Virus record (IMG/VR): IMGVR_UViG_3300012953_002798
Location: 1 to 25,991 of that record
DNA length: 25,991 nucleotides
Origin: a virus
Lineage: Duplodnaviria > Caudoviricetes
Direction: 5' to 3' (one strand)
The notes under the pieces were generated by a model. That model was not told the origin of the DNA. It saw nothing but the letters and a program-made list of their open reading frames with translations, and searched no databases. Positions 3,604-25,991 of this stretch are shown in pieces (the first letter of the stretch is position 1; each line of letters begins with the position of its first letter). The position numbers and the translations under genes are program-made.

Positions 3604-3608
3604 ACCTA

Positions 3609-6191: not shown

Positions 6192-7206
6192 AAAAGCGAT
6201 AATTACAGGCATCACCGGACAGGATGGACCATACCTTGCAGATCTACTTTTAGAAAAAGGATATGAAGTTCATGCCATAAGGAGAAGAGGTGCCACAGAT
6301 AACACAACAAGAATTAAACATATATTAGACCATGATAATTTTTGGCTACACTATGGTGATCTTACAGATTCATCAAGTTTAGTTAAGATTGTAAATATGG
6401 TAAAACCTGATGAAGTCTATAATTTAGGTGCAATGTCACATGTAAGAATATCTTTTGATATTCCTGAATACACTGGAGATACTGGTGGTTTAGGCGTGAC
6501 AAGAATGCTTGAAGCTATAAGAACTGCAGGTTTAGAAAAGACATGTAAATTTTATCAGGCATCCACATCAGAACTATATGGAAAAGTAGTTGAAACACCA
6601 CAAACGGAAGCAACACCATTTTGGCCAAGATCGCCTTATGGTGTTGCCAAGTTGTATGCTTATTGGATGGTAAAAAATTATAGAGAATCATACGGTATGT
6701 ATGCATGTAATGGTATCTTATTCAATCATGAATCACCTAAACGTGGTGATGATTTTGTCACACAGAAAATTGTAAAGGCAGCAATTGCTATATCTTATGG
6801 TGAACAAGATAAACTTACACTTGGAAACTTAGATGCAATGAGAGATTGGGGACATGCAAAAGATTATGTTAAAGGTATGTACTTAATGTTGCAACAAGAT
6901 AAACCAGTAGATTATGTATTAGCTACTGGCGAAATACATTCTGTAAAAGAATGTTGTGAATACGTATTTAAAAAATTAGGTATGCCATTAAGATGGGAAG
7001 GTAATGGTATCGAGGAAAAAGGTTTTTCAGGCGATAAACTAATGATTGATTGTAGTGAAGATTTTTATAGACCAGCAGAAGTACAACTTTTACATGGTGA
7101 CTCAACAAAGGCTCAGTCTGAATTAAATTGGGAGTTTGAACACGATTTCTATTCTTTAATGGATGATATGGTAGATACTGAACTCATGAAACATGTGGAG
7201 AAGTAA
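6184..7206 (+). CDS. gmd: GDP-mannose 4,6-dehydratase
   Basis: [54 protein letters not shown] and LGNLDA.RDWGHA. Confidence 0.97.
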
Positions 7207-8388: not shown

Positions 8389-9143
8389 CAGATTATTCAG
8401 TAGTAATGACATTAGGTCCACATAACTGGAAACAGTATGGTTCTAAATCAGTAGAATCTTTTGACAAGTATTGGCCTAAACACATACAACTTTATGTTTA
8501 TTATGAAGGTACTCCACCAGACTTTAAATCTGATAGAGTACATTTCTTAGATTATAATAAAGAAATACCTGAACATAAAGAATTTATGGAAAGAAATAAA
8601 GATAGGCATCCACATGTAAACGATGTGCATGTAAATAATATTACACATCAAGCAAGTAAGTTTGCATTTAAGGTCTATGCACAATTGCATGAATTAGAAA
8701 AACCAAAAAGTAGATATGTAATATATCTTGATGGTGATAATGTGACACAGAAAGATATACCATTAGATTTACTTGATAAATTAGTAAATGAAGAAGTATA
8801 TCTATCCTTTGTAAATAGAATGCCAGCTAAATACACTGAAACAAGTATAATGATATGGGATACTTTAAATGAAAATCATAACGAATGGTGTAGTACTTAT
8901 AGAAGTATGTATGATGATGATAATATATTTCAATATCCAGCATGGCATGATTGCATTGCATTTGACGAGACAACATTTCCTATGATTAAAGCTAAGAAAA
9001 TTAAAGCAATTGACTTAGGCTTTGGTGCACCATCTAAACATCCACTTGTTGTTGGACCATTAGGTGAATACTTTGACCATTTAAAAGGTCCATCAAGAAA
9101 ACAATTAGGTTATTCTAAGGAAAGAAAGCATGCAGGATTTTAA
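8385..9143 (+). CDS. Putative GT-A fold glycosyltransferase
   Basis: ATGA overlap with the colD stop (ATG 8385). KF.FKVYA, YVIYLDGD (DxD), WHD and HPL...DHLKG motifs. Confidence 0.6.
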   Translation: MTDYSVVMTLGPHNWKQYGSKSVESFDKYWPKHIQLYVYYEGTPPDFKSDRVHFLDYNKEIPEHKEFMERNKDRHPHVNDVHVNNITHQASKFAFKVYAQLHELEKPKSRYVIYLDGDNVTQKDIPLDLLDKLVNEEVYLSFVNRMPAKYTETSIMIWDTLNENHNEWCSTYRSMYDDDNIFQYPAWHDCIAFDETTFPMIKAKKIKAIDLGFGAPSKHPLVVGPLGEYFDHLKGPSRKQLGYSKERKHAGF

Positions 9144-9798
9144 AGTCTTTATTGGTTATGATTCAAGAGAAGATATAGCCTACCAAGTTTGTAGGCATTC
9201 TATACTTAAACATAATCCACACATAGAAGTAGTACCACTTAAATTACATGAATTAAGAGAACAAGGTTTCTATACAAGAGCCGATGATAAGAAAGGTTCT
9301 ACAGAATTTACTATTACTAGGTTCTTATGTCCAGCACTTATGAACTACCAAGGATATTCTTTATTTATGGATTGTGATATGATAGTTCAAGCAGATGTAA
9401 AAGAAATATTTAAAGAAGCAAGAGGAGAATTCGATGTATCTTGCGTACAGCATGATTATAGTCCAAAAAGTATGACTAAGATGGATGGAAAGATGCAACA
9501 TGCATATCCAAGAAAAAACTGGTCAAGTGTAATGTTGTTTAATAATGAGCAGTGTGATGCTCTTACACCAGAATTAGTAAATACAGAAACACCACTCTAT
9601 CTACATAGAATGTTATGGGCAGAAAAAGTTGGTGAATTAAATCATAAATGGAATCATCTTCTTGGTTATTATGAAAAACCTGAAGATGCTTTGATAGTAC
9701 ATTATACAGATGGCGGTCCATGGTTTGAAAACTATAGAAACTGTGAATATGCTGATGTATGGAAACAACATGTAAAAGAGTGGTTAGAACTTGATTAA
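9130..9798 (+). CDS. GT-A glycosyltransferase (GT8-like)
   Basis: VFIGYDSRE, STEFT.TRFL.P, LFMDCD (DxD), YPRKNWSSVMLFN, WNHL and HYTDGGPW. Confidence 0.8.
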   Translation: MQDFKVFIGYDSREDIAYQVCRHSILKHNPHIEVVPLKLHELREQGFYTRADDKKGSTEFTITRFLCPALMNYQGYSLFMDCDMIVQADVKEIFKEARGEFDVSCVQHDYSPKSMTKMDGKMQHAYPRKNWSSVMLFNNEQCDALTPELVNTETPLYLHRMLWAEKVGELNHKWNHLLGYYEKPEDALIVHYTDGGPWFENYRNCEYADVWKQHVKEWLELD

Positions 9799-10492
9799 TG
9801 TAGTTTGTGTAAATTGGGGTACTAAGTATCCTAAATCATATACAGAGCGTTTGTATAATATGGTCAAACGTAATACTACACGTGACTTTAATTTTTATGT
9901 ATTGACAGATCAACACATATATGAAGAACCAATAAAAACCATTGAACTGAAAGCAGGTTTAAAAGGTTGGTGGAATAAACTACAGATGTTTGATAGAGAA
10001 GTTATGCCTGAAGGTGAATGGTTATATTTTGATTTAGATGTAGTGATAGTAGAAAATATTGATTGTTTCTTTGATTCACCAAAATTTGGTATACTACGAG
10101 ATTTTATAAGACCAGATGAAGGATTATTACCTGGTAAAGAGTACAATTCATCAATACTCAGGTTCAATAATTTTGAATATTCTTCTATATTTGAGTATTA
10201 TCTATCTAATAAGCAGGTGTTTCATGATATGCAAAAACAAGTACCATTCTTTGGTGATCAAAATGTTATTAGTAGCTACTTTAATGCTTACCCTGATTAC
10301 TGCAAGCCATTCCCAGATGAATGGGCATGGTCCTACAAAAAAGGAGTGGCAAGAGGCGCCCATGCAGGAGATCGAAGTGAAATGTTTGGAAGAGAAATAC
10401 CTGATGGCGGGAAGATCTGTGTATTCCACGGAGAACCTAATCCAGAACAGGTGCTGGAGAAACACGATTGGATAAAGGAGAACTATAAATGA
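9791..10492 (+). CDS. GT-A glycosyltransferase
   Basis: VVCVNWGTKY, GWWNKL, LYFDLDVVI (DxD), NSS, GDQ and ICVFHGEPNP; TTG start. Confidence 0.78.
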   Translation: MINVVCVNWGTKYPKSYTERLYNMVKRNTTRDFNFYVLTDQHIYEEPIKTIELKAGLKGWWNKLQMFDREVMPEGEWLYFDLDVVIVENIDCFFDSPKFGILRDFIRPDEGLLPGKEYNSSILRFNNFEYSSIFEYYLSNKQVFHDMQKQVPFFGDQNVISSYFNAYPDYCKPFPDEWAWSYKKGVARGAHAGDRSEMFGREIPDGGKICVFHGEPNPEQVLEKHDWIKENYK

Positions 10493-10701
10493 ACAAAATG
10501 TTAGATGAGCAAATGATTCAGGCATTGGCACTGAAATTTGAAGGCCTTAAACAAGCACATATAATGAATGTAAAAACATTATTACATAATGGTGTAGGTG
10601 TTGCAGAACATCCAGATAGTGCATTAACTATTGAAGGTGAGATTGGCAAGGTTGCAGAATATGATGATAAGATCGAAGCTTTAAAAAAGTATTTTGACTA
10701 A
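10489..10701 (+). CDS. Small hypothetical protein (helical hairpin, GVGVAEHPD turn) of a type common in T4-like phages
   Basis: 70 aa, AAGGAG RBS, ATGA/TAATG coupling with both neighbours. Confidence 0.7.
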   Translation: MNKMLDEQMIQALALKFEGLKQAHIMNVKTLLHNGVGVAEHPDSALTIEGEIGKVAEYDDKIEALKKYFD

Positions 10702-11555
10702 TGGGATTTGAAAATAAAAAGATTTGTATAACTGGCCACACTAAAGGTGTTGGTAAGGCTATTAAAGATAGGCTTGAAGCTAATCACTACACAGTCATTG
10801 GTGGATCAAGATCTAATGGTGTAAATGTAGGTAAACCAAAATCAGTACTTAACTGGATTCTTAAAGAAGACCCTGATGTCTTTATTAATAATGTATTCTG
10901 GCCAGATTCACAGGCAAAAATTTGTTATCAACTTTATAATAAATGGCAAAGCGAAAAGAAACACATAATTAATATGAGTTCTACTAGCGGTATGGCTCAT
11001 ACTAATTTTAATGAGATGGCAAATAGTGATATTACTAGAGCATTTTATAACGAGTTCTGGGGACCATACGTATCAGAAAAGAATAGATTAGATTTTATTA
11101 GTAAACAATTAGCTCATAAATTTAGTAGAAGATTTCCATGTAAGGTGACTTCAATGATGCCTGGTTTTGTAGATACTAATGCAGTAGCTTTATTCAAACC
11201 CGTATTTACACCTGAAAGTTTCTTAACACCTGAAGAAGTAGCACAGCAAGTGCATTGGCTGATAGAACAACCTGATCATATACAAGTGCAAGCTCTAGCG
11301 TTTGGTACATATTTTGAAATATCACAAGCAGCTGCAAGACAAAGATTAAAAGACTTTGATAATATGGTAGAACAACAACAAAATAATGCTTATAATTTAG
11401 ATGAAAAAGCGGTTGAAGCTGGAAAAGAAGGTAGAGAAGCATTGAAAAAACTTATTAATAAGAGAATCATGCAAACAACACCAGATGTATCAAGAAAAAC
11501 AAAAGATGCAATTGAGCAATTACAAGAAGAAACGTATGATGGAAAAGAAGAATAG
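10701..11555 (+). CDS. Classical short-chain dehydrogenase/reductase (SDR) with C-terminal coiled extension
   Basis: ITGHTKGVG (TGxxxGxG), FINN, IINMSS, catalytic YVSEK (YxxxK) and PGFVDT. Confidence 0.85.
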   Translation: MGFENKKICITGHTKGVGKAIKDRLEANHYTVIGGSRSNGVNVGKPKSVLNWILKEDPDVFINNVFWPDSQAKICYQLYNKWQSEKKHIINMSSTSGMAHTNFNEMANSDITRAFYNEFWGPYVSEKNRLDFISKQLAHKFSRRFPCKVTSMMPGFVDTNAVALFKPVFTPESFLTPEEVAQQVHWLIEQPDHIQVQALAFGTYFEISQAAARQRLKDFDNMVEQQQNNAYNLDEKAVEAGKEGREALKKLINKRIMQTTPDVSRKTKDAIEQLQEETYDGKEE

Positions 11556-12783
11556 ACTTGCAGTCACAGGTGTAGCTATTGCAGATTGTCTTGGTGATGA
11601 TGGCATAGAAAATAATTTCAATAGGTATATGGCTAATGATACATCTACACCTATGGATATCGAAAACATCAAGCAATCAATTGTAGAAAAAGGTTTATTA
11701 AGAAAAGCATTGACAAAATACTATGATAGATCTTCTATGGCTATTATAGATTTAGTAGATAAAGCAATTAATATGGCCGACTTAGATGTAAAGTCAGATA
11801 CTGAAGCACCTATCATGACTGGTACAACAAGAGGTCCTATTACATCTACACTAGAATACTTTAAATTATATTGGTTTGAAAAATGGAAAGAAGAATTTGA
11901 ATCTGATCCTGCAAAGAAACAAGAAATATATGCTGGTCTAATTAAAAAGTTTCAAAGAATGAATCCATATTTTCTTTTAAATGTAAATGTAGATTTTATA
12001 CAAACACAACTATCTGCTCATTATGGTATCAATGGTCCAGTATTTCAATCAGCAGCGACATGTAGTAGTGGTATTTACCTATTAGATATTGCAAAGGCTT
12101 ATTTAGAGAGAGGTAATAAGTATGCTATTCTTACGGGTTATGAACAACTTGATGCTCATGAATTAACACGTTGGTTCTTTATGTCTTTAGGTGCTGCAGC
12201 TCCAAGTGGTGTATGTAAACCTTTTGATAATAGTAGAGATGGTACAGTGTTAAAGAATTCGTATGCAGCTATGATTGTAGAACGAGAAGATGAGGCTAAG
12301 AAGAGAGGTGCAAATATCTTAGCTTATGTTGAAGATGTAAGAAATAGAAATGATGCAGGTCATGCATTAGCACCAGCTGATGATGGTAAAGCATATCGAA
12401 TTGCATTGGAGTCCTTAATGAAAGACAAAGACATTACGTATGATGATATAGATTATGTAAATGCGCACGCCACAGGTACTCCAAGAGGTGATGAGATAGA
12501 ACTTAATACACTTAAAGATTATCTTAAAAAAGATACGGTAATTTCTGCCTTAAAAGGCCATATTGGTCATGCTATGGGTGCATGTTCTTTGGCAGAAATG
12601 ACATATACTATAATGATGATGAATAAAGGTATTGCTTTACACACAGCACATTTAACTGATCCATGTGATGATTACTTTAATCTTATTACAGAGCCAAAAG
12701 AAATGGAAATTAAGTATGCACTTAAGAATAGTTTTGGTTTTGGTGGTAGATCTTCTGTAGCATTGCTATCGAAAGCTGACTAA
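11536..12783 (+). CDS. fabF: Beta-ketoacyl-ACP synthase (FabF/KAS II-like ketosynthase)
   Basis: LAVTG, catalytic Cys in AATCSSG, CKPFD..RDG, YVNAHATGT..GD..E, KGHIGH and NSFGFGG. Start is probably 11536 or 11539; the ORF is open from 11485. Confidence 0.88.
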   Translation: MMEKKNRLAVTGVAIADCLGDDGIENNFNRYMANDTSTPMDIENIKQSIVEKGLLRKALTKYYDRSSMAIIDLVDKAINMADLDVKSDTEAPIMTGTTRGPITSTLEYFKLYWFEKWKEEFESDPAKKQEIYAGLIKKFQRMNPYFLLNVNVDFIQTQLSAHYGINGPVFQSAATCSSGIYLLDIAKAYLERGNKYAILTGYEQLDAHELTRWFFMSLGAAAPSGVCKPFDNSRDGTVLKNSYAAMIVEREDEAKKRGANILAYVEDVRNRNDAGHALAPADDGKAYRIALESLMKDKDITYDDIDYVNAHATGTPRGDEIELNTLKDYLKKDTVISALKGHIGHAMGACSLAEMTYTIMMMNKGIALHTAHLTDPCDDYFNLITEPKEMEIKYALKNSFGFGGRSSVALLSKAD

Positions 12784-13826
12784 TGGAACTTATAAAACAC
12801 GATCATTATGCAGAATTAAAGGTAGATTCACCTAGTAATGATGATGATATAAAAGAATTAGGTCGGGCATGTAGAGAATACTTGTTCGACCACCAAGTTT
12901 TAGTACTCAAAAAACAAAATCCTGATTCAGTATACTATTCAAAACTGATTCATTCAATAACAAAATCCGGCATATACAATTGGAGACAATGTTCTTGGAC
13001 ACCTGACGGTGAGTTGTTTAGTATGGGAGAACAACTTATGGCAAATGTTGGATATACATCGAAAGAAGCTTCTAATATAGAGATGCCTAAATCAGGACCA
13101 TTGAATCAGATTAAACCTACATCATCTTTACAAGATAAGAATCATGAATATTTAGATCCATTTGAATTTAATGAAGTAAACTCATATCCAGTACAACGTG
13201 TCACTGGTGAACAGAAAGGAAAATACGGTGGTGGTATATTTGGTACTGGCGACTTGGATTGGCATTGCAATCTTGGAGGTTATCACGAGGCTGATGGCGT
13301 AGCGCTACAAGGAATTAGAGATGTAGAAGGTGCTTCAACCTTCTTTGCAAATAGTGTACCTGCTTTAAGAGATATGCCTGATAATTTATTAGGTCAAATA
13401 CAAGATAGAAAAGCACACTTTAAATTTGACCATAAGAAATGGTCAGATACAAAGAAGATGCATCCAATGCAGAGAATTACTATGCAACTCTTATATCTTA
13501 ATAATAAGAGAGCAGAAATGGATTTGTATGTTATACAAGAGAATCTAAAGAAGATTAAAGGTATATACTTTCATAGACTTAATAATATGGATATAGAAGG
13601 TGATGATGGTACATTAGTGCAGGCTTTATATGATCACATGTTTCAAGAACAATATGTATATGAACACCATTGGGAAGTTGGAGATATTGTCTTAATGGAC
13701 CAATTAATAACACAGCATAAAAGAGAATTCGTAGAACCATCTCTCTTAGAGAAAAGAGTACTACACAGACTTACATTTATGTTAAACAACGATGATAACT
13801 ATGTCTACAATTATAACCACTCTTGA
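12783..13826 (+). CDS. TauD/TfdA-family Fe(II)/2-oxoglutarate dioxygenase-like protein (HxN variant)
   Basis: LDWHCN, G..T.FAN, YEHHWEVGDIVLMDQ..TQHKR and RVLHR; TAATG coupling to the ketosynthase. Confidence 0.75.
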   Translation: MELIKHDHYAELKVDSPSNDDDIKELGRACREYLFDHQVLVLKKQNPDSVYYSKLIHSITKSGIYNWRQCSWTPDGELFSMGEQLMANVGYTSKEASNIEMPKSGPLNQIKPTSSLQDKNHEYLDPFEFNEVNSYPVQRVTGEQKGKYGGGIFGTGDLDWHCNLGGYHEADGVALQGIRDVEGASTFFANSVPALRDMPDNLLGQIQDRKAHFKFDHKKWSDTKKMHPMQRITMQLLYLNNKRAEMDLYVIQENLKKIKGIYFHRLNNMDIEGDDGTLVQALYDHMFQEQYVYEHHWEVGDIVLMDQLITQHKREFVEPSLLEKRVLHRLTFMLNNDDNYVYNYNHS

Positions 13827-14772
13827 TACTGACATAACAAACATGGTCGATCCAGACTATGATAGAATTAAGAGAGCAGTTGAATCTGATGGTATCATAT
13901 TAATAAAGAAACAAGACACAAATCCAATACACTTCAGTAAAATTATTAGTAAAATTTGGGGTATTGATAACTACAGATTCCTAGCTTGGAATACAGATGG
14001 TTCATCTGCTAAGAATGCAATAGCAGCATTCACACAAAAACAAATGCCTAATCCAAACGCTGGTGATTATTGGGGACATGATGATTTCAGAGATAATGAA
14101 GATTATCCAGATCCATTTAATTTTCCAGCACATAAAACATATCCAGTACAAAGAGTGACTGGTGAAAAGAAAGAAGGTAAGTGGACAGGAATATTTCAAT
14201 TAGGTAAATTAGATTGGCATTGTAATTTGAATCAATTACATGGTGCTGATGGTGTAGCATTACAAGCAATACGAGGTTGTGAGAATACACCAACACTATT
14301 TATGAATACTATTCCGGCATTGAAAGAAATGCCTGAAGATTTAAGAAAGAAAATAGAAGGTAGATATGCAACTTACATTTATGACTATGAAAAATGGGGT
14401 AAGGTTATGTCTAAAGAACAAGCAATGGTGTTTAAACTTGCTGGAAAGAAACCATTTAAGTTATGGTTGATTCAGGAAAATGCTGGTGGTACTAAAGGTA
14501 TCTATTGGCATAAGTTTAATCACATGCAAATCAATGATGATGAAGGACATAAACTAAGAGATGAGTTAGAAGAATACTTATTTCAAGATAAGTATATCTA
14601 CACACATAATTGGGAGGTAGGTGATGTTATTATAATGGATCAACTACTTACTCAACATAAAAGGGTACCAGAAAAAGATGAGGTACTAGAAAATAGAGTT
14701 CTACACAGGTTATCATTTAGGTTAACAAACCGAGGTGTACCAAGAGCTCTTGAATTAGCCAATAGGATATAA
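13792..14772 (+). CDS. TauD/TfdA-family dioxygenase-like protein, paralog 2 (HxN variant)
   Basis: YPVQRVTGE, LDWHCNL, ADGVALQ, YTHNWEVGDVIIMDQLLTQHKR and RVLHRL, all shared with the preceding gene. Alternative start at 13801. Confidence 0.75.
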   Translation: MITMSTIITTLDTDITNMVDPDYDRIKRAVESDGIILIKKQDTNPIHFSKIISKIWGIDNYRFLAWNTDGSSAKNAIAAFTQKQMPNPNAGDYWGHDDFRDNEDYPDPFNFPAHKTYPVQRVTGEKKEGKWTGIFQLGKLDWHCNLNQLHGADGVALQAIRGCENTPTLFMNTIPALKEMPEDLRKKIEGRYATYIYDYEKWGKVMSKEQAMVFKLAGKKPFKLWLIQENAGGTKGIYWHKFNHMQINDDEGHKLRDELEEYLFQDKYIYTHNWEVGDVIIMDQLLTQHKRVPEKDEVLENRVLHRLSFRLTNRGVPRALELANRI

Positions 14773-14775
14773 ATA
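14768..14775 (+). promoter_or_regulatory. T4-type late promoter TATAAATA
   Basis: Perfect consensus at a gene end, upstream of an AAGGAG RBS and ATG 14807. Confidence 0.7.
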
Positions 14776-14806
14776 CTATATCCAAATAAACAAAGGAGAA
14801 ACTTAT

Positions 14807-15007
14807 ATGGAATCGATTAAAGAAATGGTAATGATGGGAGTAGACTGGGTAAAAGACAGACTATCTGAGAGAACATCTTGGGATGGTATTGTACTTATTG
14901 CAATCGGAAGTCTAATTCTGATCGCATCTCCACTGACTAAAATTGCAGCACTTGTTGCAATCGGTTATGGAGTATTTACTATCTTAAAAGATGAAGGTAT
15001 GTTTTAA
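14807..15007 (+). CDS. Small membrane protein (two hydrophobic segments); holin-like candidate
   Basis: AAGGAG RBS. ERTSWDG is followed by IVLIAIGSLILIA and IAALVAIGYGVFTIL. Confidence 0.7.
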   Translation: MESIKEMVMMGVDWVKDRLSERTSWDGIVLIAIGSLILIASPLTKIAALVAIGYGVFTILKDEGMF

Positions 15008-15013
15008 TTATTT

Positions 15014-15033
15014 GGGGTAGCTTCGGCTACCCC
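15014..15033 (+). terminator. GC-rich hairpin GGGGTAGC-TTCG-GCTACCCC (C(UUCG)G tetraloop); terminator or mRNA-stabilising stem
   Basis: Perfect 8-bp stem with the UUCG loop typical of T4-like phages. It has no U-tract, so intrinsic termination is uncertain. Confidence 0.65.
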
Positions 15034-15049
15034 TAACCGCGAGTATATT

Positions 15050-15361
15050 ATGATTAGAGATTGGGGTTATTGGGAAGTACTCAATGAAGGTCCTAAATAT
15101 AAAGTCAAAAAGCTGGTAATTCAACCAGGAAAATCACTATCAAATCAGAAACACTATAAGAGAGCAGAAACTTGGATTCTTGTCTCAGGTGTATGTTATG
15201 TGGAGAATGAATATGGTACTAGTAATAAACTAATACCATTTAAACCATTCCATATACCAGTTCAATCATGGCATAGAGCCTATAATAAAGATAACACGCC
15301 CGCGGAGATCATTGAGATATGGGATGGAGAATCTACAGAAAATGATATAGAGAGACGCTAA
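15050..15361 (+). CDS. Cupin, mannose-6-phosphate isomerase type II C-terminal-like
   Basis: R.WG.WEVL, YKVKKLVIQPGKSLS.QKH..RAE.W, IP...WHR..N and IIEIW.G...E.DIER. Confidence 0.8.
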   Translation: MIRDWGYWEVLNEGPKYKVKKLVIQPGKSLSNQKHYKRAETWILVSGVCYVENEYGTSNKLIPFKPFHIPVQSWHRAYNKDNTPAEIIEIWDGESTENDIERR

Positions 15362-15521
15362 AAGCTGTGTTTTCACCGAGACAGCCTTCCAAAGCATGAT
15401 CCGAGCACCATCTCGAGGCTGTAAAAATAAGGATTCTCACATATATATCATAATGTATAGTTATTAGTAAATAGAGCAAAAAGCACCAAAAATCACACCA
15501 AGCTGCTTTTTTTTGACTATT

Positions 15522-15550
15522 TTGAAAAAAACTCGCTTTTAAAGTATAAT
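15522..15550 (+). promoter_or_regulatory. Sigma70-like (early) promoter TTGAAA-N17-TATAAT
   Basis: -35 at 15522-15527 and -10 at 15545-15550, with an AGGAGG RBS at 15584-15589. Confidence 0.72.
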
Positions 15551-15596
15551 ATTACTGTATCATTAAAAATCATAGCAAAAAGCAGGAGGATAATAA

Positions 15597-16535
15597 ATGG
15601 CACATCAAGTAGAAACAATGGCGTATGCAGGTGAATTACCATGGCATGGTCTTGGAGTTAAGGTCAATGATGACCTTTCACCAGCTGAAATACAAAGAGA
15701 AGCTGGATTGGAATGGGAAGTTCAAAAAGTTCCCATGTTTGCAAATGCTAATGGTTCAGAAGTAAAGATTCCGAATCAGACAGCACTTATCAGAGAAACT
15801 GATAATAAAGTCCTATCAATTGTAGGTGATAACTGGGAGCCAGTACAAAACAGTACAGCCTTTGAGTTCTTCACTGACTTTGTGAAACAAGGTAAAATGA
15901 AAATGCACACAGCAGGTTCATTACAAGATGGTAAGATGGTATGGGCATTAGCTAAAGTAGATGATGACTTTGAACTATTTAATGGTGACAAAGTAGAATC
16001 ATATTTACTTTTCTCTAACCCACACCAGTATGGTAAATCTATTGATGTTAGATTCTCACCAATCAGAGTTGTATGCAATAACACATTGACAATGGCTCTT
16101 GGTGGTAAATCTGGTGTCACACTAGATCACCGTAAAGCTTTTGATTCTCAAACAGTTCAACAAACTATGGGACTGGCACATGAGTCAATGGACGAATACA
16201 AAGAAGTTGCAGAATTTCTTGGTTCTAAACGTTATACTAAAGATACATTGAATCAGTACTTCTCTGATGTCTTTGGTAAATCATCCAAATCAGATGACAA
16301 TGAGCTTATACTTACTCGTAATGGTAATAAAGCTCTTGATATTATCGACACCCAACCAGGTGCTGATTTTCAACGAGGTACTTTCTGGCAAGCACTGAAT
16401 GCAGTGACTTACTTAGCTGACCATGAGTTAGCGAATACCAGAGACATGAGAATGTATGCCTCTTGGTTTGGAGCTAATCGTGTTAAAAAAATTAATGCGG
16501 TTAAAAAAGCAGTAGAATATGCAAAAGCTGCATAA
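15597..16535 (+). CDS. DUF932/DUF945 family phage/plasmid protein
   Basis: MAH.VETMAY..E.PWHGLG, AGL.W.V, QN..AF.FF, TAGSL..GK.VW.LA, PIRVVCNNTL and GT.W.A.NAVT...DH. Confidence 0.88.
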   Translation: MAHQVETMAYAGELPWHGLGVKVNDDLSPAEIQREAGLEWEVQKVPMFANANGSEVKIPNQTALIRETDNKVLSIVGDNWEPVQNSTAFEFFTDFVKQGKMKMHTAGSLQDGKMVWALAKVDDDFELFNGDKVESYLLFSNPHQYGKSIDVRFSPIRVVCNNTLTMALGGKSGVTLDHRKAFDSQTVQQTMGLAHESMDEYKEVAEFLGSKRYTKDTLNQYFSDVFGKSSKSDDNELILTRNGNKALDIIDTQPGADFQRGTFWQALNAVTYLADHELANTRDMRMYASWFGANRVKKINAVKKAVEYAKAA

Positions 16536-17412
16536 CACTAAAGCTTTAACCCTAGATAGCGTGGCCATAGAGCCACGCTACTCTACTATTTTAAAGGCAG
16601 ATAAGATTGATTTGGAGATTGATAATAAAGCTCCAATATGGGCATCATGTGATGATGCTACAGGTACTATAGAAATAGCAGAATCATTATCTGAAGCAAA
16701 GATTGGTACACTCTTAAGTACTAGATACGATATAGATGAATTATACAATTTCTTCTTTGAAGAAAAACCTTATGTTGCATTATCCATTGGCGATACTGAA
16801 GGTCAACTACATAAATGGAATCAATTAAAAAGCAAACTGCCAACAGGTAATATACACTATGTAAATCTTGTCACACAAAATGCACATAGCATAGAGTATA
16901 TTTACAAGGTGGCTAAATTTAAGGAGGCAAACAAAGATGTCAAAGTCATCGCAGGACCAGTATCAGACCCAACAGCAACAAGGAAACTTTTCGAAGTGGG
17001 TACAGAAATTACAAGGATTGGATTTGATGCTCGTTTCGATAACGAAAATTATATGGAGACTGGTGTTGGTAGCCCTCACGTTAGCGTTCTTCTTAGTAAT
17101 GATGAAGTTGCTAGGGAGTTTGATGGGCATATCATGGCTTCTGGATTCTATCCTGACGCAAGTGATATCGCCAAGTGTATAGCTTGTGGAGCATCATCAG
17201 TAGAAGTAAGTAAACTATTCTATGGCCATGAAGAGAACTATGGCAAGACAGAAACTATTGATGGAAGTATGTATAAGAATGGTGTTGAGTACAGTGGTAA
17301 AATTATAAATACAGTATATGATCTTCTCAATACTTTAGAGAAATCATGCCGTCAAGCTGGATATAAATCAATTAAAACTTTCCGAGATTCAGCCAAGTTA
17401 GTTATCATATAG
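16519..17412 (+). CDS. GMP reductase/IMP dehydrogenase (GuaC/GuaB)-fold protein with degenerate active site
   Basis: LTLDSVAIEP.YST, PIWAS..D..GT.E.A, VIAG.V, TGVG.P, DIAKCIACGA and Y.G.I.NT...L...L...C...G align with GuaC. The GIGPGSxC catalytic loop reads IGFDARFD. Confidence 0.75.
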   Translation: MQKLHNTKALTLDSVAIEPRYSTILKADKIDLEIDNKAPIWASCDDATGTIEIAESLSEAKIGTLLSTRYDIDELYNFFFEEKPYVALSIGDTEGQLHKWNQLKSKLPTGNIHYVNLVTQNAHSIEYIYKVAKFKEANKDVKVIAGPVSDPTATRKLFEVGTEITRIGFDARFDNENYMETGVGSPHVSVLLSNDEVAREFDGHIMASGFYPDASDIAKCIACGASSVEVSKLFYGHEENYGKTETIDGSMYKNGVEYSGKIINTVYDLLNTLEKSCRQAGYKSIKTFRDSAKLVII

Positions 17413-17420
17413 TATAAATA
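17413..17420 (+). promoter_or_regulatory. T4-type late promoter TATAAATA
   Basis: Perfect consensus immediately after the stop at 17412, upstream of ORF 17526. Confidence 0.65.
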
Positions 17421-17525
17421 CATTATCCGATATACAGTTGGTATACTGCTTATAAAACAACCGCAAAGCAACTAAACTCAAATTTAACTACATTATTAAC
17501 TATAACATTTATAAGAGATATTAAC

Positions 17526-17714
17526 ATGGGAATATATGAAAGCATTTTTGTAACGACAATGATAACCTTTATAGGTTTTCTTGCATGGCGTGTTTATCTC
17601 ATAGAAACAAATCATCTTACCCACATTGAAAAAGCCATCACAGAAATTCAAACAGATATGAAATGGCTAATCAAATTTCATCAAGAAGAAAAATCCCCCA
17701 AGAAAAAAAAATAA
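17526..17714 (+). CDS. Small single-TM protein with C-terminal coiled coil and basic tail
   Basis: Hydrophobic IFVTTMITFIGFLAW, then NHLTHIE...IQTDMKW and a KKKK tail. Confidence 0.6.
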   Translation: MGIYESIFVTTMITFIGFLAWRVYLIETNHLTHIEKAITEIQTDMKWLIKFHQEEKSPKKKK

Positions 17715-17730
17715 CCGTTTAGTATAATCT
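17703..17730 (+). promoter_or_regulatory. Putative promoter (A-tract ... AGTATAATCT) for the replisome operon
   Basis: TATAAT at 17723-17728, then AAGGAG RBS and ATG 17748. No TTGACA-like -35. Confidence 0.55.
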
Positions 17731-17747
17731 CTATACAAGGAGATTTT

Positions 17748-18965
17748 ATGGTTGCATCTAAAAAACGGCAAAAGAACGCGGAGCTTTTAAAAGCTATGCG
17801 TAATCCAGAAGAACCGATACCACCAGCAGAGAATGAACTGGCTAAAATGTCAGGCATTAACTATTCTAAATCTAAGCGTGATGCTCAGGAATGGTATCGT
17901 ATGGAGAAAAGTAAAAAAGAATTCAAGACATATGTCATTGATTATATTAAGAATACAAGACCTGACCAATTAAAGATTATAAAAAGAAATCCTGATTGGA
18001 GATTCAGTCCAGTTCTTGGAGCTATGTGTAGAATGTTAACACGTGGTTGGCCTGACTATGTGGAAGCTGAGAATGTATATTGGCAAGGATTACCAGGTAC
18101 TACAGGTGTAGTAAGACCTATGTCAGCTTGGTTAGAGCCAAGACTTGATGAGTTATATGATAAAGGATTACATGGTGAAGATGAAGATGATGATAAACCT
18201 AAAGTAATTCGTAAGTCACCTATAGAACTATATAAAGAAAAAGTTTGGGATACAGTCATGACTGATCTGGTGAACATGGAAGATGATTGGATTGATGGTA
18301 AACAAACAACTATAGATATCTACACACTGTACCAGAAATATGGTCTTACTTCAAAAGCAAATCCAATTGTAGAACAACAAACTAAAAGATGGCATGAAGA
18401 GTATACAGAGTTATTGAAAGTAAGAAAGATAAAAGAACGTAGTGATTGGGACGAGCAACTCGTTGAAGGTTATCAGCATTTACAAGATAAAGAAGTTAAG
18501 TTTAGATTTAAAGCAATTGATACTATACACAGCGATTTAGAAAGAATTAAGAAAGCAACTCAAACTACTCGTAAATCAAGAGTCAAGAAACCACAGTCTG
18601 CAGAAAGACAGGTTAAGAATCTTAATTATGAGAAAGAGAATCATGAATATAAAGTAGTATCATTAAATCCACTACAAATTATTGGAACACATCGTCTATT
18701 AGTATTCAGTACAAAGTATTGCCGTATTGAAGAATATATTTCAGAGCGAGTAGATGGTTTCGAAGTAAAAGGACAAGCTTTATTACATGTTGATAAAACT
18801 AGAGGTAAGAAGTTAAGAAAGCCTATGGAATTCTTACCACTTGCACTATCAAAGACTGAAAGACAGTTTGATAAAGAATATGAAAAACTGACCACTAAGG
18901 AGTATAAACCTAATGGAAGGTTCAACAAAGCTCTTATTATATTAAGAGCAGACAAAAGGAGATAG
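17748..18965 (+). CDS. Conserved-looking hypothetical protein of T4-like phages
   Basis: 405-aa ORF with strong RBS. QLVEGY.HL, P..IIG...L.VF.TK and KKLRKP...NGRFN resemble uncharacterised marine T4-like proteins (recalled). Function unknown. Confidence 0.7.
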   Translation: MVASKKRQKNAELLKAMRNPEEPIPPAENELAKMSGINYSKSKRDAQEWYRMEKSKKEFKTYVIDYIKNTRPDQLKIIKRNPDWRFSPVLGAMCRMLTRGWPDYVEAENVYWQGLPGTTGVVRPMSAWLEPRLDELYDKGLHGEDEDDDKPKVIRKSPIELYKEKVWDTVMTDLVNMEDDWIDGKQTTIDIYTLYQKYGLTSKANPIVEQQTKRWHEEYTELLKVRKIKERSDWDEQLVEGYQHLQDKEVKFRFKAIDTIHSDLERIKKATQTTRKSRVKKPQSAERQVKNLNYEKENHEYKVVSLNPLQIIGTHRLLVFSTKYCRIEEYISERVDGFEVKGQALLHVDKTRGKKLRKPMEFLPLALSKTERQFDKEYEKLTTKEYKPNGRFNKALIILRADKRR

Positions 18966-19867: not shown

Positions 19868-20285
19868 AGCAGATAAATTATATGGTGACTTAGTTGATGT
19901 CATCGGACAAATGTCTACCAGCCGTAGATTCAAGGTTGGTGCTATTATTGTAGATGATGGATTAGAAAATATTATTGCGTTTGGTTATAATGGAACACCA
20001 CGCGGTTGGGATAACGACTGTGAAATAGAAAATGAAGATGGTTCATTAACAACTAAACGAGAAGTTTTGCATGCGGAGTCAAATGCCCTTGCAAAAGTCG
20101 CACGTACCACATCCAGTGCAGAGGGATCGACGCTTTATGTCTCACTATCTCCTTGCTATGATTGTGCAAAGCTCATCTATCAAGCTGGTGTGGTTCGTGT
20201 CGTCTATAATGAAGAATACAGAAGTAAAGATGGAATAGATTTTCTTCTGGACTGTGGAGTAGAATGTGAGCAAAGAGAACTTTGA
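19854..20285 (+). CDS. cd: dCMP deaminase
   Basis: KVGAII, GYNGTPRG, HAESNA and SPCYDCAK zinc motifs. Confidence 0.93.
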   Translation: MKIAKADKLYGDLVDVIGQMSTSRRFKVGAIIVDDGLENIIAFGYNGTPRGWDNDCEIENEDGSLTTKREVLHAESNALAKVARTTSSAEGSTLYVSLSPCYDCAKLIYQAGVVRVVYNEEYRSKDGIDFLLDCGVECEQREL

Positions 20286-20496
20286 TCAGAAAAAAAAGTT
20301 AAAAGCATGGAAGTCAAAGACCGAGAAACTGGATAAGCAATGGAAAGATGGCTTCAAACCATTAGGTAAACCAGGAGCTGTAAAAAATTCTATAGCCATT
20401 GAGTATAATGGTAAGATATATGATTCACTCTCTTCAGCATCTAGAAAGACTGGAAGATCTATTGGATATATTAAGAAGCATAGCAAGGAGTTATAA
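20266..20496 (+). CDS. Small basic protein with NUMOD1-like helix-turn-helix
   Basis: GTG start with GGAG RBS. IEYNGKIYDSLSSASRKTG matches the NUMOD1-like G..Y.S..EA....G pattern. Confidence 0.55.
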   Translation: MSKENFDQKKKLKAWKSKTEKLDKQWKDGFKPLGKPGAVKNSIAIEYNGKIYDSLSSASRKTGRSIGYIKKHSKEL

Positions 20497-21431
20497 TGAA
20501 AGAACAATTTTTATGGGTAGAAAAATATCGTCCTAAGACTATTGACGAATGTATTTTACCTGACAAGTTAAAGCAAACATTTATTAACCTTAGAGATAAA
20601 GGTGATATGATGAATTTGCTTTTATCAGGTTCGGCGGGTACTGGCAAAACCACAGTGGCCAGAGCCCTTTGCGAAGAGCAAGGCTGTGATTACATCATAA
20701 TAAACGGTTCTGATGAGGGTAGATCTATTGATATACTCAGAGATAAGATTAAAAAGTTCGTCTCTACTGTTTCGACTACTACTAAGCCGAAAGTAGTTAT
20801 TATTGATGAAGCTGATTACCTAGGTATCGCAGTCCAGCCTGCTCTTCGTAATTTTATTGAAGAGTTTAGTTCAAATGCTAGATTCATATTAACATGTAAT
20901 TTCAAACATAAGATCATACCACCTTTACATTCAAGATGTAGTGTTATAGATTTCAGTATATCTAAATCTGATATGGCTGCAAATGCTGGTGGTATTGCTA
21001 AAAGATGTATGAATATTCTTGATACTGAAAAAGTTAAGTATGAAAAACAAGCAGTACTTGAAGTTGTAAAATCTCATTTTCCTGATAATCGTAGAATCAT
21101 TAATGAACTACAAAGATATTCTCATATTGATAATAATATTGATAGCGGTATCATTGCAGTTGTAAATACAAGTAAAGTAAAAACTCTTGTAAAATATATT
21201 AAGCAAAAAGATTTCAAATCATGTAGAGCTTGGATTGCAGATAATCCTGATCCTGATTCTTTATTCAATGAGTTCTATCAATCAATAAATGAATATGTAG
21301 AACCATCTTCTATACCAAATCTTATCTTAATCATTGGTGAGTACCAACATAGATCAGCATTTGTCACAAATCAAGAAATTAACTTAGCAGCATTTGTAGT
21401 TGAGGTTATGAAGAATGTCAAGTTCCGTTAA
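20496..21431 (+). CDS. gp44: Clamp loader large subunit (AAA+)
   Basis: LWVEKYRP..IDECILP, Walker A GSAGTGKTT, Walker B IIDEAD, PLHSRC and FPD.R..INELQRY. Confidence 0.96.
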   Translation: MKEQFLWVEKYRPKTIDECILPDKLKQTFINLRDKGDMMNLLLSGSAGTGKTTVARALCEEQGCDYIIINGSDEGRSIDILRDKIKKFVSTVSTTTKPKVVIIDEADYLGIAVQPALRNFIEEFSSNARFILTCNFKHKIIPPLHSRCSVIDFSISKSDMAANAGGIAKRCMNILDTEKVKYEKQAVLEVVKSHFPDNRRIINELQRYSHIDNNIDSGIIAVVNTSKVKTLVKYIKQKDFKSCRAWIADNPDPDSLFNEFYQSINEYVEPSSIPNLILIIGEYQHRSAFVTNQEINLAAFVVEVMKNVKFR

Positions 21432-22062
21432 ATTAATCAGTTATACGAATGCACCAGGCACTCATGAGGACAAAGTTTTAACTGATCTAATAGCTTATAC
21501 AGCTAGAGTTTCTAACCCATCCAATCAAGACAATAAGGAGACACAGGATAGGCTCCTTAAATACTTAATGAAGAATCAACATTGGTCACCATTCGAAATG
21601 GTAAATGTTTGTTTAGAAATTAAAACAACTAGAGATATTGCTAGACAAATATTAAGACATAGAAGTTTTTCATTTCAAGAGTTTAGTCAAAGGTATGCTG
21701 TTGCAAACTCCTTTACTCTTAGAGAGGCTAGAATACAAGATACAAAGAACAGACAGAATTCACATGACAATTTAGATATAAAACTAGAAAGAGACTGGTT
21801 GAATAAACAACAAGACTTGGTAGATAAAGCTAGAGAGTTATATGATTGGGCATTGGAAAATAAGATTGCAAAAGAACAAGCCAGAGCAGTCTTACCAGAA
21901 GGTTTAACTAATTCAACTTTGTATATGAATGGCACATTAAGAAGTTGGATACATTACATTGATTTAAGAATAGCAAATGGAACTCAAAAAGAACACAGAG
22001 AAGTTGCTTCTAAATGTTTGGAACAGATTTCAAGAATCTTTCCTGCAATCAAAGACAACTAG
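21415..22062 (+). CDS. thyX: Flavin-dependent thymidylate synthase
   Basis: ARVS, HWSPFE, RQILRHRSFSFQEFSQRY, AKEQARAVLP and TQKEHR. Confidence 0.96.
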   Translation: MSSSVKLISYTNAPGTHEDKVLTDLIAYTARVSNPSNQDNKETQDRLLKYLMKNQHWSPFEMVNVCLEIKTTRDIARQILRHRSFSFQEFSQRYAVANSFTLREARIQDTKNRQNSHDNLDIKLERDWLNKQQDLVDKARELYDWALENKIAKEQARAVLPEGLTNSTLYMNGTLRSWIHYIDLRIANGTQKEHREVASKCLEQISRIFPAIKDN

Positions 22063-22516
22063 GATATACTTCTTCTTAAGTACTCATTACCCACGTAAAA
22101 GAGCAGCACGTATGGGTTATAATGAGGTACACCCATGTTATATAGCCAGAAAAGGAAATGGTCTATATGCATGGGAAAAAGGTACATATTATAATAGTCA
22201 CAGAAGAATATCTAAATTTAGAGGTTTGAAACTTGGTATTGGAGAATATGGTGTTTCATTTGGTTTGATTAGTGGATATAGACCAAGAAACTTCTTAAAG
22301 ATACTCTTAAAGTCAGGTGAAATGCCATACATATTATTTCATTCTAAATCAGCATTCCATATACCTGCATTTATGGTATTTCCAGGTCAATGGTGGATTG
22401 TTTGTAAATATGAGGAAAAAACTTTGATGGGTCAGTATAAAGATCTTATAGGACATTGGAGTATAAAGAAAAGAAATGCAAATAGATTTATTCGGAAACG
22501 TAATAAAAGACAATAA
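21977..22516 (+). CDS. Hypothetical basic, aromatic-rich protein; start uncertain (21977 or 22112)
   Basis: Only long ORF covering the 22063-22475 gap. It overlaps thyX and gp62, and no motif was recognised. Confidence 0.55.
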   Translation: MELKKNTEKLLLNVWNRFQESFLQSKTTRIYFFLSTHYPRKRAARMGYNEVHPCYIARKGNGLYAWEKGTYYNSHRRISKFRGLKLGIGEYGVSFGLISGYRPRNFLKILLKSGEMPYILFHSKSAFHIPAFMVFPGQWWIVCKYEEKTLMGQYKDLIGHWSIKKRNANRFIRKRNKRQ

Positions 22517-23334: not shown

Positions 23335-25833
23335 ATGTCAGAATACTACACTAATGTTGCCATATATGGGCAAAATCTACTAGTCCGCGGTATCAGAGAT
23401 GGTGAAGAGTTTAGATCTAAAATTAAGTATGATCCTACACTCTACATACAATCTGCTACAAAGACAGGATTTACAGATGTTTATGGTAATCATTTAAAGC
23501 CATTACCATTTGATACAATGGTAGATGCCAGAAACTTTGGCAAACAAAATGAAGAAACAAATCTAAAAGTATATGGCTTCCCATTCTTTAACTCTCAGTA
23601 TTGTATTGAATATTATCCTAATGCTGAGAATGATTGGAAACGCGAAGAGATAAGAACATTTACAATTGATATTGAAGTATCTTCTGAAGAAGGTTTCCCT
23701 GAACCAGGTGAAGCCGCTCATCCAATCACAGCAATATGTTTACATGATTCTATTACTGATAAGTTTATTACATTCGGTAATGGTGATTGGTCAAGAAATG
23801 ATTCAGTACTTACTGATCAAGATTTACTAGATAAAATTGTATATGTACCATGTAATTCAGAAAGACAAATACTTGACTTCTTTATAAAGTATTGGCAAGA
23901 TCATTATCCTCAAATTATTACTGGTTGGAATACTCAATCATTTGATATGCCATATATTCACAATCGTATGGTAAAACTAGGAATGGATATTAAAAGACTC
24001 TCACCATGGGGTGTCACACGTATCAAAGAATTTCCTACAAAACAAGGTAATCAGCTCAGAGTTGAAATCATGGGTATTGATGATATTGATTATCTTGACA
24101 GATATAAAAAGAATGCTGTACAAGAATCATATCGTTTAGATCACATTGCTAATATCGAGCTTGGTGAAAAGAAACTAGATTATAAAGAAGTTGGTTCTTT
24201 ACATAAATTATTCTTTGAAGATTTCAATAAGTTTATTGATTATAATATTCAAGATACTAATCTTGTCAAAAGACTTGACGATAAGATGGGATTGATTGAT
24301 GTTCAAATTGCAGTAGCTTATAAAGCAGGTATTAATTATGAAGATGTATCAGGTGTTGTTAAAACATGGGATGCTATGATTAATAAAGAAATGTTCTTTG
24401 AAAAGAAAATACCACCATTCAGTTTTCCAAGAGGTGGATATACAGAAGCTATTCCAGGTGGTTATGTAAAACCACCACAGGTTGGTAAGCATGGATGGGT
24501 TGCTTCATTTGATTTAAACTCTCTATATCCTCATCTTATTATGCAATATAATATATCACCTGAAACTATTATGGATAAACTTCAGGTATGGCCAGAAATA
24601 TCTGAAGAAAAACGCATGCGTGATTTCTTACATGGTAAATCATTTAAATCACAAGGTGACTTTGCAGTTGCTGCTTCTGGTTGGATGTTTAAGAAAGACT
24701 TTGAAGGTATCATACCAAGAGTTATGCGTAAGCTATATGATGAACGTAAACAAATTCAAGGTGTAATGAAGAAGAAGCAGAAAGAAGGTGCTGATATTAC
24801 TAAACTGCATCTTGCTCAATATGTTCGTAAAATATTATTGAACTCAGGTTATGGTGCAATCACAAACAAATATTATAGATGGTTTGATCCAAGACTTGGT
24901 TCTAGTATCACATTATCAGGTCAGTTTGTAATTCAACGTGCTGAAATGGCAATCAATAGATATCTTAACAAGCTCTTAAAGACAGATAAAGTTGATTATG
25001 TTATTGCAATTGATACAGATTCAAACTATGTAAATCTTCAACCATTGGTTGATAAGTTCTTCGCAGATAAATCTAAAGCGGAAGTTGTAGATATTCTTGA
25101 CAGAGTCTGCGAAGAACAACTAACCAAAGCTCTTAATAAAGAGTTTGATTCAATAGCTGAATATCAAAATGTATATGCTCAGAAGATGGTTATGGGTAGA
25201 GAAGCTATTGCAGATGCTGCATTCTGGACAGCAAAGAAAAGATATGCAATGAATGTGCATGATATGGAAGGTTATAGACCTGAAAAGCCAAAGATCAAGA
25301 TACAAGGTCTTGAAGCCATCAGATCAAGTACACCTCAAGGCTGTAGAGAACCATTATTAAAACTTATTGAATTAGTACTAACCACTGATGAAGAAACAGT
25401 TCAGAAAGCGATTGCCAACTTTAAGAAGCATTTCCTTACATTACCTGCAGAAGAAATTGCATTTCCTAGAACTATGAATAATGTATGGCAATATACACCA
25501 AGAGATAATATTGGTTTCAAGAAAGGTACTCCACCACATATACGTGGTGCAATACTATTCAACAGACTTATCAATCAACACAAACTCGAGAAAGATTGGG
25601 AATATATCAAGAATGGTGAGAAAGGTAAATTCTTATGGCTTAGAGAACCTAATAATGTTGGTGGTGATGTAGTATCTTATTTGACATCTCTGCCTGATGA
25701 ATTCAAGGTCAGAGAATATATCAATTATGAAAAGATGTTCAGTAAAATTATTGGTGAACCTATGGAAGGTATACTAGATCCTATCGGCTGGACTATTGAA
25801 AAGCAATTGAATCTAACAAATTTCTTTGGATAA
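23335..25833 (+). CDS. gp43: Family B DNA polymerase (T4 gp43-like)
   Basis: ExoI DIEV, ExoII GWN...FDMPY, ExoIII YNIQD, motif A SFDLNSLYP, motif B KILLNSGYG, motif C DTDS, KKRY and a C-terminal clamp-binding LTNFFG. Confidence 0.97.
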   Translation: MSEYYTNVAIYGQNLLVRGIRDGEEFRSKIKYDPTLYIQSATKTGFTDVYGNHLKPLPFDTMVDARNFGKQNEETNLKVYGFPFFNSQYCIEYYPNAENDWKREEIRTFTIDIEVSSEEGFPEPGEAAHPITAICLHDSITDKFITFGNGDWSRNDSVLTDQDLLDKIVYVPCNSERQILDFFIKYWQDHYPQIITGWNTQSFDMPYIHNRMVKLGMDIKRLSPWGVTRIKEFPTKQGNQLRVEIMGIDDIDYLDRYKKNAVQESYRLDHIANIELGEKKLDYKEVGSLHKLFFEDFNKFIDYNIQDTNLVKRLDDKMGLIDVQIAVAYKAGINYEDVSGVVKTWDAMINKEMFFEKKIPPFSFPRGGYTEAIPGGYVKPPQVGKHGWVASFDLNSLYPHLIMQYNISPETIMDKLQVWPEISEEKRMRDFLHGKSFKSQGDFAVAASGWMFKKDFEGIIPRVMRKLYDERKQIQGVMKKKQKEGADITKLHLAQYVRKILLNSGYGAITNKYYRWFDPRLGSSITLSGQFVIQRAEMAINRYLNKLLKTDKVDYVIAIDTDSNYVNLQPLVDKFFADKSKAEVVDILDRVCEEQLTKALNKEFDSIAEYQNVYAQKMVMGREAIADAAFWTAKKRYAMNVHDMEGYRPEKPKIKIQGLEAIRSSTPQGCREPLLKLIELVLTTDEETVQKAIANFKKHFLTLPAEEIAFPRTMNNVWQYTPRDNIGFKKGTPPHIRGAILFNRLINQHKLEKDWEYIKNGEKGKFLWLREPNNVGGDVVSYLTSLPDEFKVREYINYEKMFSKIIGEPMEGILDPIGWTIEKQLNLTNFFG

Positions 25834-25836
25834 TAG

Positions 25837-25844
25837 TATAAATA
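25837..25844 (+). promoter_or_regulatory. T4-type late promoter TATAAATA
   Basis: Perfect consensus 3 nt after the gp43 stop. The expected start site falls at the 5' end of the structured RNA. Confidence 0.75.
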
Positions 25845-25849
25845 TTATA

Positions 25850-25982
25850 CGTTCATCAACTTTTTAGTTGACGGAAGTAGGCAAAACCTGAAAACCTCCC
25901 TATTCTTAGGGGAAAGCAAGTACCTTCTTTTTGGGTCAATAAATCCAGAAGGGAACGAGACCGAAAGTTTGCTGAAGGAACG
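25850..25982 (+). ncRNA. glnA-motif (glutamine riboswitch class I)-like RNA with expanded P3
   Basis: P1 CGUUC(25850-54)/GAACG(25978-82). P2 UCAACU/AGUUGA (25856-71). Junction CGGA plus E-loop AGUA(25876-79)/GAA(25974-76). P3 GGCAAA(25880-85)/UUUGCU(25968-73). Confidence 0.72.
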
Positions 25983-25991
25983 CGTTGAGAA

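Follow-up and report, generated by a model that had tools for sequence, protein, structure and literature searches.

The last 155 bases of a 25,991-nt phage fragment (the window, by which we mean the whole stretch of DNA that was analysed) hold the start of a cassette in which an RNA of the glnA type carries a second, conserved domain inside its P3 helix and leads into a short ORF encoding YRG repeats. Judged from sequence comparison, this appears to be a genuine riboswitch of the glutamine-I type whose variant architecture includes a conserved and uncharacterised domain, and it is common to T4-like phages and the marine SAR86 lineage. We observe a defined anatomy, covariation of the proposed structure, a fixed link to the YRG ORF and copies of the cassette on SAR86 chromosomes. 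The overall explanation that we favor, and hold to be probable, is a glutamine-ON translational switch with a nested second binding module that would control the YRG peptide and that, in this phage, is likely driven by a late promoter.

Setting of the cassette in the phage genome

The window derives from a T4-like phage, of whose genome it is a fragment, with genes for a gp46-like nuclease, sugar modification, the sliding clamp, clamp loaders, regA and a DNA polymerase (gp43) that is only 42% identical to its best matches among isolates. Between the gp46-like gene and the sliding clamp (1308-18965) lie sugar-nucleotide, glycosyltransferase, aminotransferase and oxygenase-like genes, many of which have no PHROG match, and at 20266-22516 dCMP deaminase, thymidylate synthase and putative oxygenase genes are interleaved with those of the clamp and clamp loader. 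The position of the cassette behind the polymerase gene (Table 1) is not a constant feature of such phages. Of 16 polymerase loci for which downstream DNA was available, 5 lack the whole cassette at this site, and in other phages it sits after other genes, often a putative major capsid gene (read by eye). The riboswitch-ORF unit behaves as a mobile cassette.

An earlier note on this DNA, made from the letters alone, had seen a late promoter motif 5 nt before a glnA core, and these positions were confirmed (TATAAATA at 25837-25844, a 5-nt gap and P1 from 25850). By itself the octamer is not significant, with 4 occurrences in the window against 4.8 expected; the three further sites are at 14768, 17304 and 17413. 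Among the matches listed, TATAAATA was found no more than 45 nt upstream of 50 of 101 viral cassettes but of none of 46 bacterial ones, and it was absent from all 95 control windows; 36 of the 101 viral cassettes had no late-promoter motif. The arrangement is that of a T4 late transcription unit, with TATAAATA a few bases before the RNA in a T4-like phage, the start site and timing being predicted. The RNA would likely be made from this phage late promoter.

Table 1. Coordinates of the features of the cassette and its surroundings
Feature	Position	Strand	Remarks
T4-like DNA polymerase (gp43) gene	23335..25833	+	PHROG 262, E 2.4e-273; cassette directly 3' of gene
Predicted T4-type late promoter TATAAATA	25837..25844	+	Motif and enrichment before viral cassettes
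P1 5' strand (C1, G2) and A6	25850..25855	+	P1 strand 25850-25854; ligand contacts according to PMC6698751
P2 hairpin, family-variable length	25856..25871	+	First four pairs canonical in 108/108 listed RNAs
J2/3 with G22, G23 and outer loop-E strand AGUA	25872..25879	+	CGGAAGUA in 106/108 listed RNAs, the search patterns themselves having largely demanded CGGAAGUA
P3 5' strand	25880..25889	+	Pairs with 25965-25973; 5-11 nt long in family
Nested domain	25890..25964 (75 nt)	+	Three-way junction, predicted tandem G-A closure, invariant GAAAACC and GAGACCGA strands
P4 hairpin	25897..25912	+	Invariant U-G, C-G base; covarying stem; free loop
P5 arm	25915..25957	+	Invariant C-G pair; second loop E AGUA 25919-25922 / GAA 25953-25955; covarying distal stem
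GAAGGAACGC: outer loop-E GAA, G54, P1 3' strand (C58, G59), C60	25974..25983	+	
Start of expression platform: 5' strand of alternative helix from C60	25983..25991	+	Helix covariation; rest beyond window
40-aa YRG ORF	L001:6412-6534		Beyond window; two YRG repeats, DUF4278-like

A glutamine-I type aptamer with its pocket bases intact

The glnA core that had been proposed (P1, P2, E-loop and P3) is present with every element in its proposed place. The pocket bases, namely the C1-G59 and G2-C58 pairs, G22 and the G23/C60 pair, are all there (25850, 25851, 25873, 25874, 25981-25983). In the solved glutamine-I structure glutamine is contacted by C1-G59, G22 and C58 (PMC6698751), and the G23/C60 pair comes from PMC6212724. 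With its P1/P2/P3 three-way junction and loop E, the RNA has the make-up of the glutamine-I family (RF01739), and it is very probable that glutamine would bind the intact outer pocket.

A search with the Rfam glnA model, as suggested in the earlier note, had a mixed outcome. The window copy scored 21.5 bits on RF01739, short of the gathering cut-off of 35; relatives with shorter inserts reached 40-55 bits. Among the 16 polymerase-linked loci only two, with shorter inserts, passed (40.5 and 40.7 bits), and eight further loci with an insert all reached 43-55 bits when the model skipped over it. The low score of the window copy is probably a consequence of its long insert. The 147-nt fold taken alone had z = -1.39.

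Other assignments were considered and set aside. The glutamine-II model (RF01704) gave only partial matches of 15-20 bits against a cut-off of 33, and here there is a P3 with loop E instead of a pseudoknot. A tandem glnA arrangement was rejected, there being one aptamer in the window and an upstream aptamer-like end in just 1 of 396 locus matches. A tRNA/tmRNA search of the 16 loci found none.

A conserved domain nested in P3

The P3 loop was described in the earlier note as holding an insertion of about 79 nt with two extra hairpins (25897-25912 and 25923-25952). An enlarged, structured P3 is indeed present; the conserved insert is 75 nt long, and a count of 79 takes in the inner end of P3. 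Both hairpins also exist, not as loose appendages but as parts of a three-way junction with a second loop E. What the note missed is that the insert is, by sequence comparison, a domain conserved across the family. Its order is P3, GAAAACC, P4, two free bases, P5 (AGC, the second loop E and a distal stem), GAGACCGA and P3. Insert length across the family is 50-80 nt, and the P5 distal stem, 30 nt in the window (25923-25952), ranges from 8 to 30.

Pattern scans, in which some bases were imposed by the patterns, gave at least 108 distinct complete RNAs; across these about 29 junction and loop-E bases are near-invariant and two helices covary. The covariation analysis across homologs that had been called for bears the structure out. 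Over 70 sequences the full named structure had 161 double-sided changes against 46 ± 8 in shuffled alignments (none of 500 shuffles equalled it) and 3-46 in slid controls, with P4 showing double changes at three pairs in 31-34 of the 70, counts that are inflated by shared ancestry among the sequences and in which 16 'unpaired' P1 cells represent an alignment slip.

Because the patterns had imposed some bases, the scans were repeated with each half of the structure left free, and among the matches listed the conserved blocks were recovered in 68 of 69 distinct RNAs with one half free and, five chance matches left out, in 69 of 70 with the other. When only the outer aptamer was fixed, all insert blocks were found in 13 of 13 RNAs among the matches listed. 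Every full-signature match was nested in a glnA P3 (116 of the 119 viral matches listed and 49 of the 118 metagenomic ones, the rest being without the signature). A covariance model of the insert alone, whose alignment included close relatives but not the window copy itself, scored the window at 66.3 bits. The same model matched 44 of 151 SAR86-order genomes at 56-78 bits, all nested (43 of them found before, and the remaining one nested too), and 3 of 151 genomes in the Halieaceae sample, one nested and two weak ones judged by eye to be chance. In these 151 SAR86-order and 151 Halieaceae genomes the insert model revealed no free-standing or diverged copies, and no other Rfam family lay over the insert in the window (E up to 10) or in 8 loci (E up to 5).

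In the listed RNAs the length of P3 lies anywhere between 5 and 11 nt and the loops of P4 and P5 are free in sequence, so the domain has no fixed geometry against the glutamine pocket. This freedom points to an independent module. The P5 loop of the window (25931-25947) recurs nearly unchanged in 14 viral records, among them phage cassettes that otherwise differ (L196, L227, L247, L285), which suggests either recombination or one more conserved loop. The domain was also compared with the consensus features of familiar motifs. A sarcin-ricin-loop mimic was rejected since the distal loop has no fixed sequence and ranges from 8 to 30 nt, and kink-turn and hammerhead readings were rejected by eye.

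What the nested domain might do

We lean, by a modest degree, toward the possibility that the insert folds alone and binds a host protein or a metabolite as a second input. So many invariant bases in a module of free geometry are more in keeping with a self-contained binding site than with a stabiliser, and a protein would be a slightly likelier partner than a metabolite because the length of P3 is free. No route by which the insert could be coupled to the switch was found.

It is unlikely, in our estimation, that the insert is purely structural, a stable fold without a ligand that tunes folding, glutamine affinity or mRNA half-life and replaces the tandem layout. Such a role would agree with the observations that nested RNAs are single aptamers whereas plain ones are often tandem, and that the insert can be lost, as at L605 (see below). 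However, a stabiliser would need neither some 29 near-invariant bases nor the constraint that they imply in an element whose position relative to the pocket shifts with a 5-11-nt P3, and P3 points away from the aptamer core (PMC6698751).

Equally doubtful is the more specific idea that the insert is a second small-molecule aptamer forming a two-input, AND-type switch, possibly coupled through an invariant CCUC that pairs with GGAGG; this is a sub-case of the second-partner binding that we favor. Invariant junction bases with free loops are a riboswitch-like pattern, CCUC complements the sequence of the ribosome-binding site, and the succession of hairpin, linker, loop E and hairpin echoes glnA itself, which would suggest an old duplication. 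Yet pairing between CCUC and the site was predicted at 0.05-0.13 in long leaders and 0.00 in short ones, the glutamine-contact bases are not repeated in the insert and no Rfam family matches it. Given the low predicted pairing, CCUC was rejected as an anti-Shine-Dalgarno element.

The expression platform and the YRG ORF

The RNA does not end with the window, a point that the earlier note missed: it runs on for about 60 nt as an expression platform. The downstream sequence is supplied by a near-identical contig (L001), which overlaps the window over 6358 nt with 6 mismatches and has, beyond it, a structured leader of about 60 nt, GGAGG, a 40-aa ORF, a hairpin and a second late-promoter motif. 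Identification of the downstream ORF, which had been recommended, thus yielded a DUF4278-like YRG peptide. The window-type peptide matched PF14105 at E 1e-4, below the cut-off, and the three-repeat form of L012 matched at 8e-8, above it. The peptides, 40-55 aa long, consist of YRG repeats only, 2-3 per ORF; 108 of 132 distinct listed peptides have three, mostly 20-22 residues apart.

The earlier note offered two readings, a sensor that controls a late gene beyond the window or a standalone RNA. For the first, a gene was found, the 40-aa YRG peptide, and the promoter in front of it is a predicted late one. The second was judged unlikely because a YRG ORF follows 107 of 108 listed insert-bearing RNAs, as expected of the leader of a DUF4278 gene. 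That the RNA is non-coding and standalone, or is a variant that no longer senses glutamine, strikes us as highly improbable: the sub-threshold Rfam score of the window copy would be in keeping with it, but that score is probably due to insert length, the pocket bases are intact and the link to the ORF is nearly constant.

The alternative helix that starts at C60 has its first three pairs canonical in 122, 122 and 121 of 123 long leaders (those parsed of 131), with compensatory changes. It covers the ribosome-binding site in short-leader relatives and ends about 5 nt before it in the class to which the window belongs. In cyanobacteria, glutamine binding forms G23-C60 and melts a short helix adjacent to P1, which has been proposed to free the ribosome-binding site (PMC6212724). 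By analogy with the gifB leader described there, it is likely that binding would draw C60 into the G23-C60 pair, weaken the C60 helix and free translation, so that high glutamine would likely turn translation of the peptide on. Nearest-neighbour folding constrained to the bound state gave no release of the ribosome-binding site in the long- or short-leader classes (median unpaired site: 0.40 versus 0.48 for viral long leaders, 0.53 versus 0.50 for bacterial ones and 0.01 versus 0.05 for short leaders). Folding energy therefore reproduces no switch, and the ON logic is taken from homology.

The long leader between aptamer and start codon (L001:6350-6411) itself forms a conserved hairpin, whose internal loops are invariant and whose tip covaries; about half of the distinct listed RNAs have it, as does L605, which lacks the insert. 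It may be a further binding element. A terminator scan after the ORF called no site, though a stem followed by a T-rich tail can be seen there. The cassette is spanned by contigs assembled from the RNA libraries of four studies, one at a depth of 59; they reveal no strand, ends or level and lend weak support to its expression. No RNA-run cover was found over gp43, and this was not counted as evidence.

Occurrence in SAR86 and the likely host

A genome scan with one genome per species matched 49 records, of which 43 were titled SAR86; the other six were four Gammaproteobacteria, one Halieaceae and one Flavobacteriales bin with a phage-looking contig. In that bin the cassette (L588) follows T4-type scaffold- and capsid-looking genes and is probably from a mis-binned phage. 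The genome-scan copies are chromosomal, lack the late promoter and have the YRG ORF next in 49 of 49 cases. Within 3 kb of the genomic cassettes, amtB was found in 28 and a PII gene in 29 of the 49; in the loci inspected these genes are upstream or convergent and hence outside the control of the switch. For the SAR86 order, one copy of the nested form was present in each of 49 of 266 incomplete genomes and plain aptamers in 105 of 266. One SAR86-order locus, L605, is a natural deletion of the insert that keeps the aptamer, platform, ORF and convergent amtB, and YRG ORFs stand behind plain tandem glnA RNAs as well (54 of 77). These two observations indicate that the insert is a dispensable add-on.

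As the cassette is also found on SAR86 chromosomes it is not specific to phages, and its presence there hints at the host. The identity between certain phage peptides and those of SAR86 is as high as 82-87%, and in a midpoint-rooted tree, which leaves the direction of transfer open, five SAR86 cassettes fall within a phage clade with support 1.0. On comparison of the sequences, the whole cassette appears to be native to SAR86 rather than a phage invention. For the phage studied here it is reasonably probable that the cassette is shared with its host lineage, which would be SAR86 or another marine gammaproteobacterium related to it. The peptide that belongs to the window has two repeats, and its identity to the closest SAR86 peptide is 35%, so the host of this phage is assigned less firmly. 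No phage isolate matched the RNA or the peptide, the nested form having been sought by blastn with limited sensitivity. A distant gp43 occurs in 2 of 266 SAR86-order genomes. DNA matches of 65-79% in 43 of the 266, mostly near nucleotide-sugar genes, had no control and were not used. One SAR86-order genome (G239; L624, L626) has a T4-like polymerase of 39-44% identity with its matched parts about 145 nt apart, possibly from an infecting phage.

The plain aptamers of the order have other neighbors as well. In 30 plain loci read by eye they stand before, among others, putative glutamate synthase and glutamine synthetase genes. At L595 and L604 they precede a glutamate synthase-like gene, and at L610 and L613-L615 plain single or tandem glnA RNAs, with another conserved leader of about 80 nt, precede a short glutamine synthetase-like gene. 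A glutamine-ON response would be unexpected at such genes, and the logic there may be reversed. Tandem glnA RNAs also precede basic, non-YRG peptides of about 50 aa in SAR86-order genomes (L606, L618-L621) and in phages (L070, L123, L159).

Possible function of the YRG peptide

The T-loops of SAR86 GlnK proteins contain YRG, and E. coli AmtB is blocked by Arg47 of the GlnK T-loop (PMC4274968). It is tempting to speculate that the peptide, through its YRG repeats, imitates the T-loop of PII and acts on one of the PII targets, for instance the AmtB ammonium channel, although we regard this as a tentative proposal that may well prove wrong. The parallel with GlnK lies in the YRG motif, in the mostly three repeats set against a trimeric channel, in the SAR86 gene neighbourhood and in production when nitrogen is plentiful (as we infer for the peptide). 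Under this hypothesis, three repeats spaced 20-22 residues apart would suit the trimeric AmtB channel. In contrast to GlnK, the peptide is 40-55 aa long, has neither PII fold nor effector sites and appears to share with the T-loop three residues (hhalign probability 9%). A complex prediction of SAR86 AmtB (two copies, 30-row alignment) with the peptide of the same genome scored 0.29 (mark 0.32, no folded controls) and is counted neither for nor against the idea; the homologue search for AmtB gave near-identical proteins only.

A different function, which we rate as rather improbable, is that of an IF17-like inhibitor of glutamine synthetase, as was suggested for picocyanobacterial DUF4278 proteins (PMC6212724). 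DUF4278 is the N-terminal part of IF17 and, in 25 of the 28 cyanobacterial genomes, follows glnA aptamers; however, short DUF4278 proteins lack the C-terminal part required for enzyme binding (PMC6212724), and the YRG peptides are made of repeats alone.

Relation to known systems

There is precedent for glutamine-I RNAs before DUF4278 genes. The Synechocystis PCC 6803 gifB leader has the P1/P2/P3 junction, loop E and pocket bases; it also has an alternative helix linked to C60 and is followed by a DUF4278 gene (PMC6212724). Unlike that leader, the RNAs described here have a P3 with a 50-80-nt conserved domain and a second loop E, a non-cyanobacterial host and an ORF of only 2-3 YRG repeats, and the phage copies use a T4-type late promoter. 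The insert motifs are already present in the glnA alignment of 2010 (PMC2864571, supplementary file 5), where one of them occurs 18 times and the eight motif places displayed were all in glnA rows; there, however, the insert, which comes from environmental reads, merely fills the P3 loop and is left unaligned, and the main text, in the portion available, does not describe it. A search of the openly accessible literature, with subscription journals outside its coverage, found no description of the nested domain. RF01739 was noted in SAR86 deletions in a 2025 paper whose accessible text does not describe the form (PMC12379486).

Glutamine riboswitches of the glnA type have been reported in the marine T4-like phages Melnitz, Mosig and S-CREM1 (PMC9004378, PMC9964418), but the available parts of these papers mention no nested domain or YRG peptide. 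Tandem glnA RNAs are likewise longer glnA leaders in the same phages and SAR86, in this case with serial copies rather than a different domain inside one aptamer. Among the matches listed in a long-span scan, 97 of 120 were tandem and 17 nested.

Implications

The most far-reaching scenario, which we consider improbable as a whole, is that a two-input riboswitch of SAR86, an aptamer nested in an aptamer and bearing a novel site for a ligand or protein, governs a multivalent mimic of the PII T-loop that plugs AmtB, and that T4-like phages captured it on many occasions and placed it under late promoters as a means of controlling nitrogen uptake by the host, so that it would mark SAR86 phages. 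The nested domain is a compact orphan RNA element, conserved in the manner of a riboswitch. Over 100 variants of it occur naturally, one natural deletion among them, which allows a direct search for its partner. Control of DUF4278 peptides by glutamine riboswitches would be extended from cyanobacteria to SAR86, an abundant ocean lineage, and the likeness between YRG and the T-loop offers a testable function for these peptides. Finally, the cassette may serve as a sequence marker that ties uncultured T4-like phages to SAR86.
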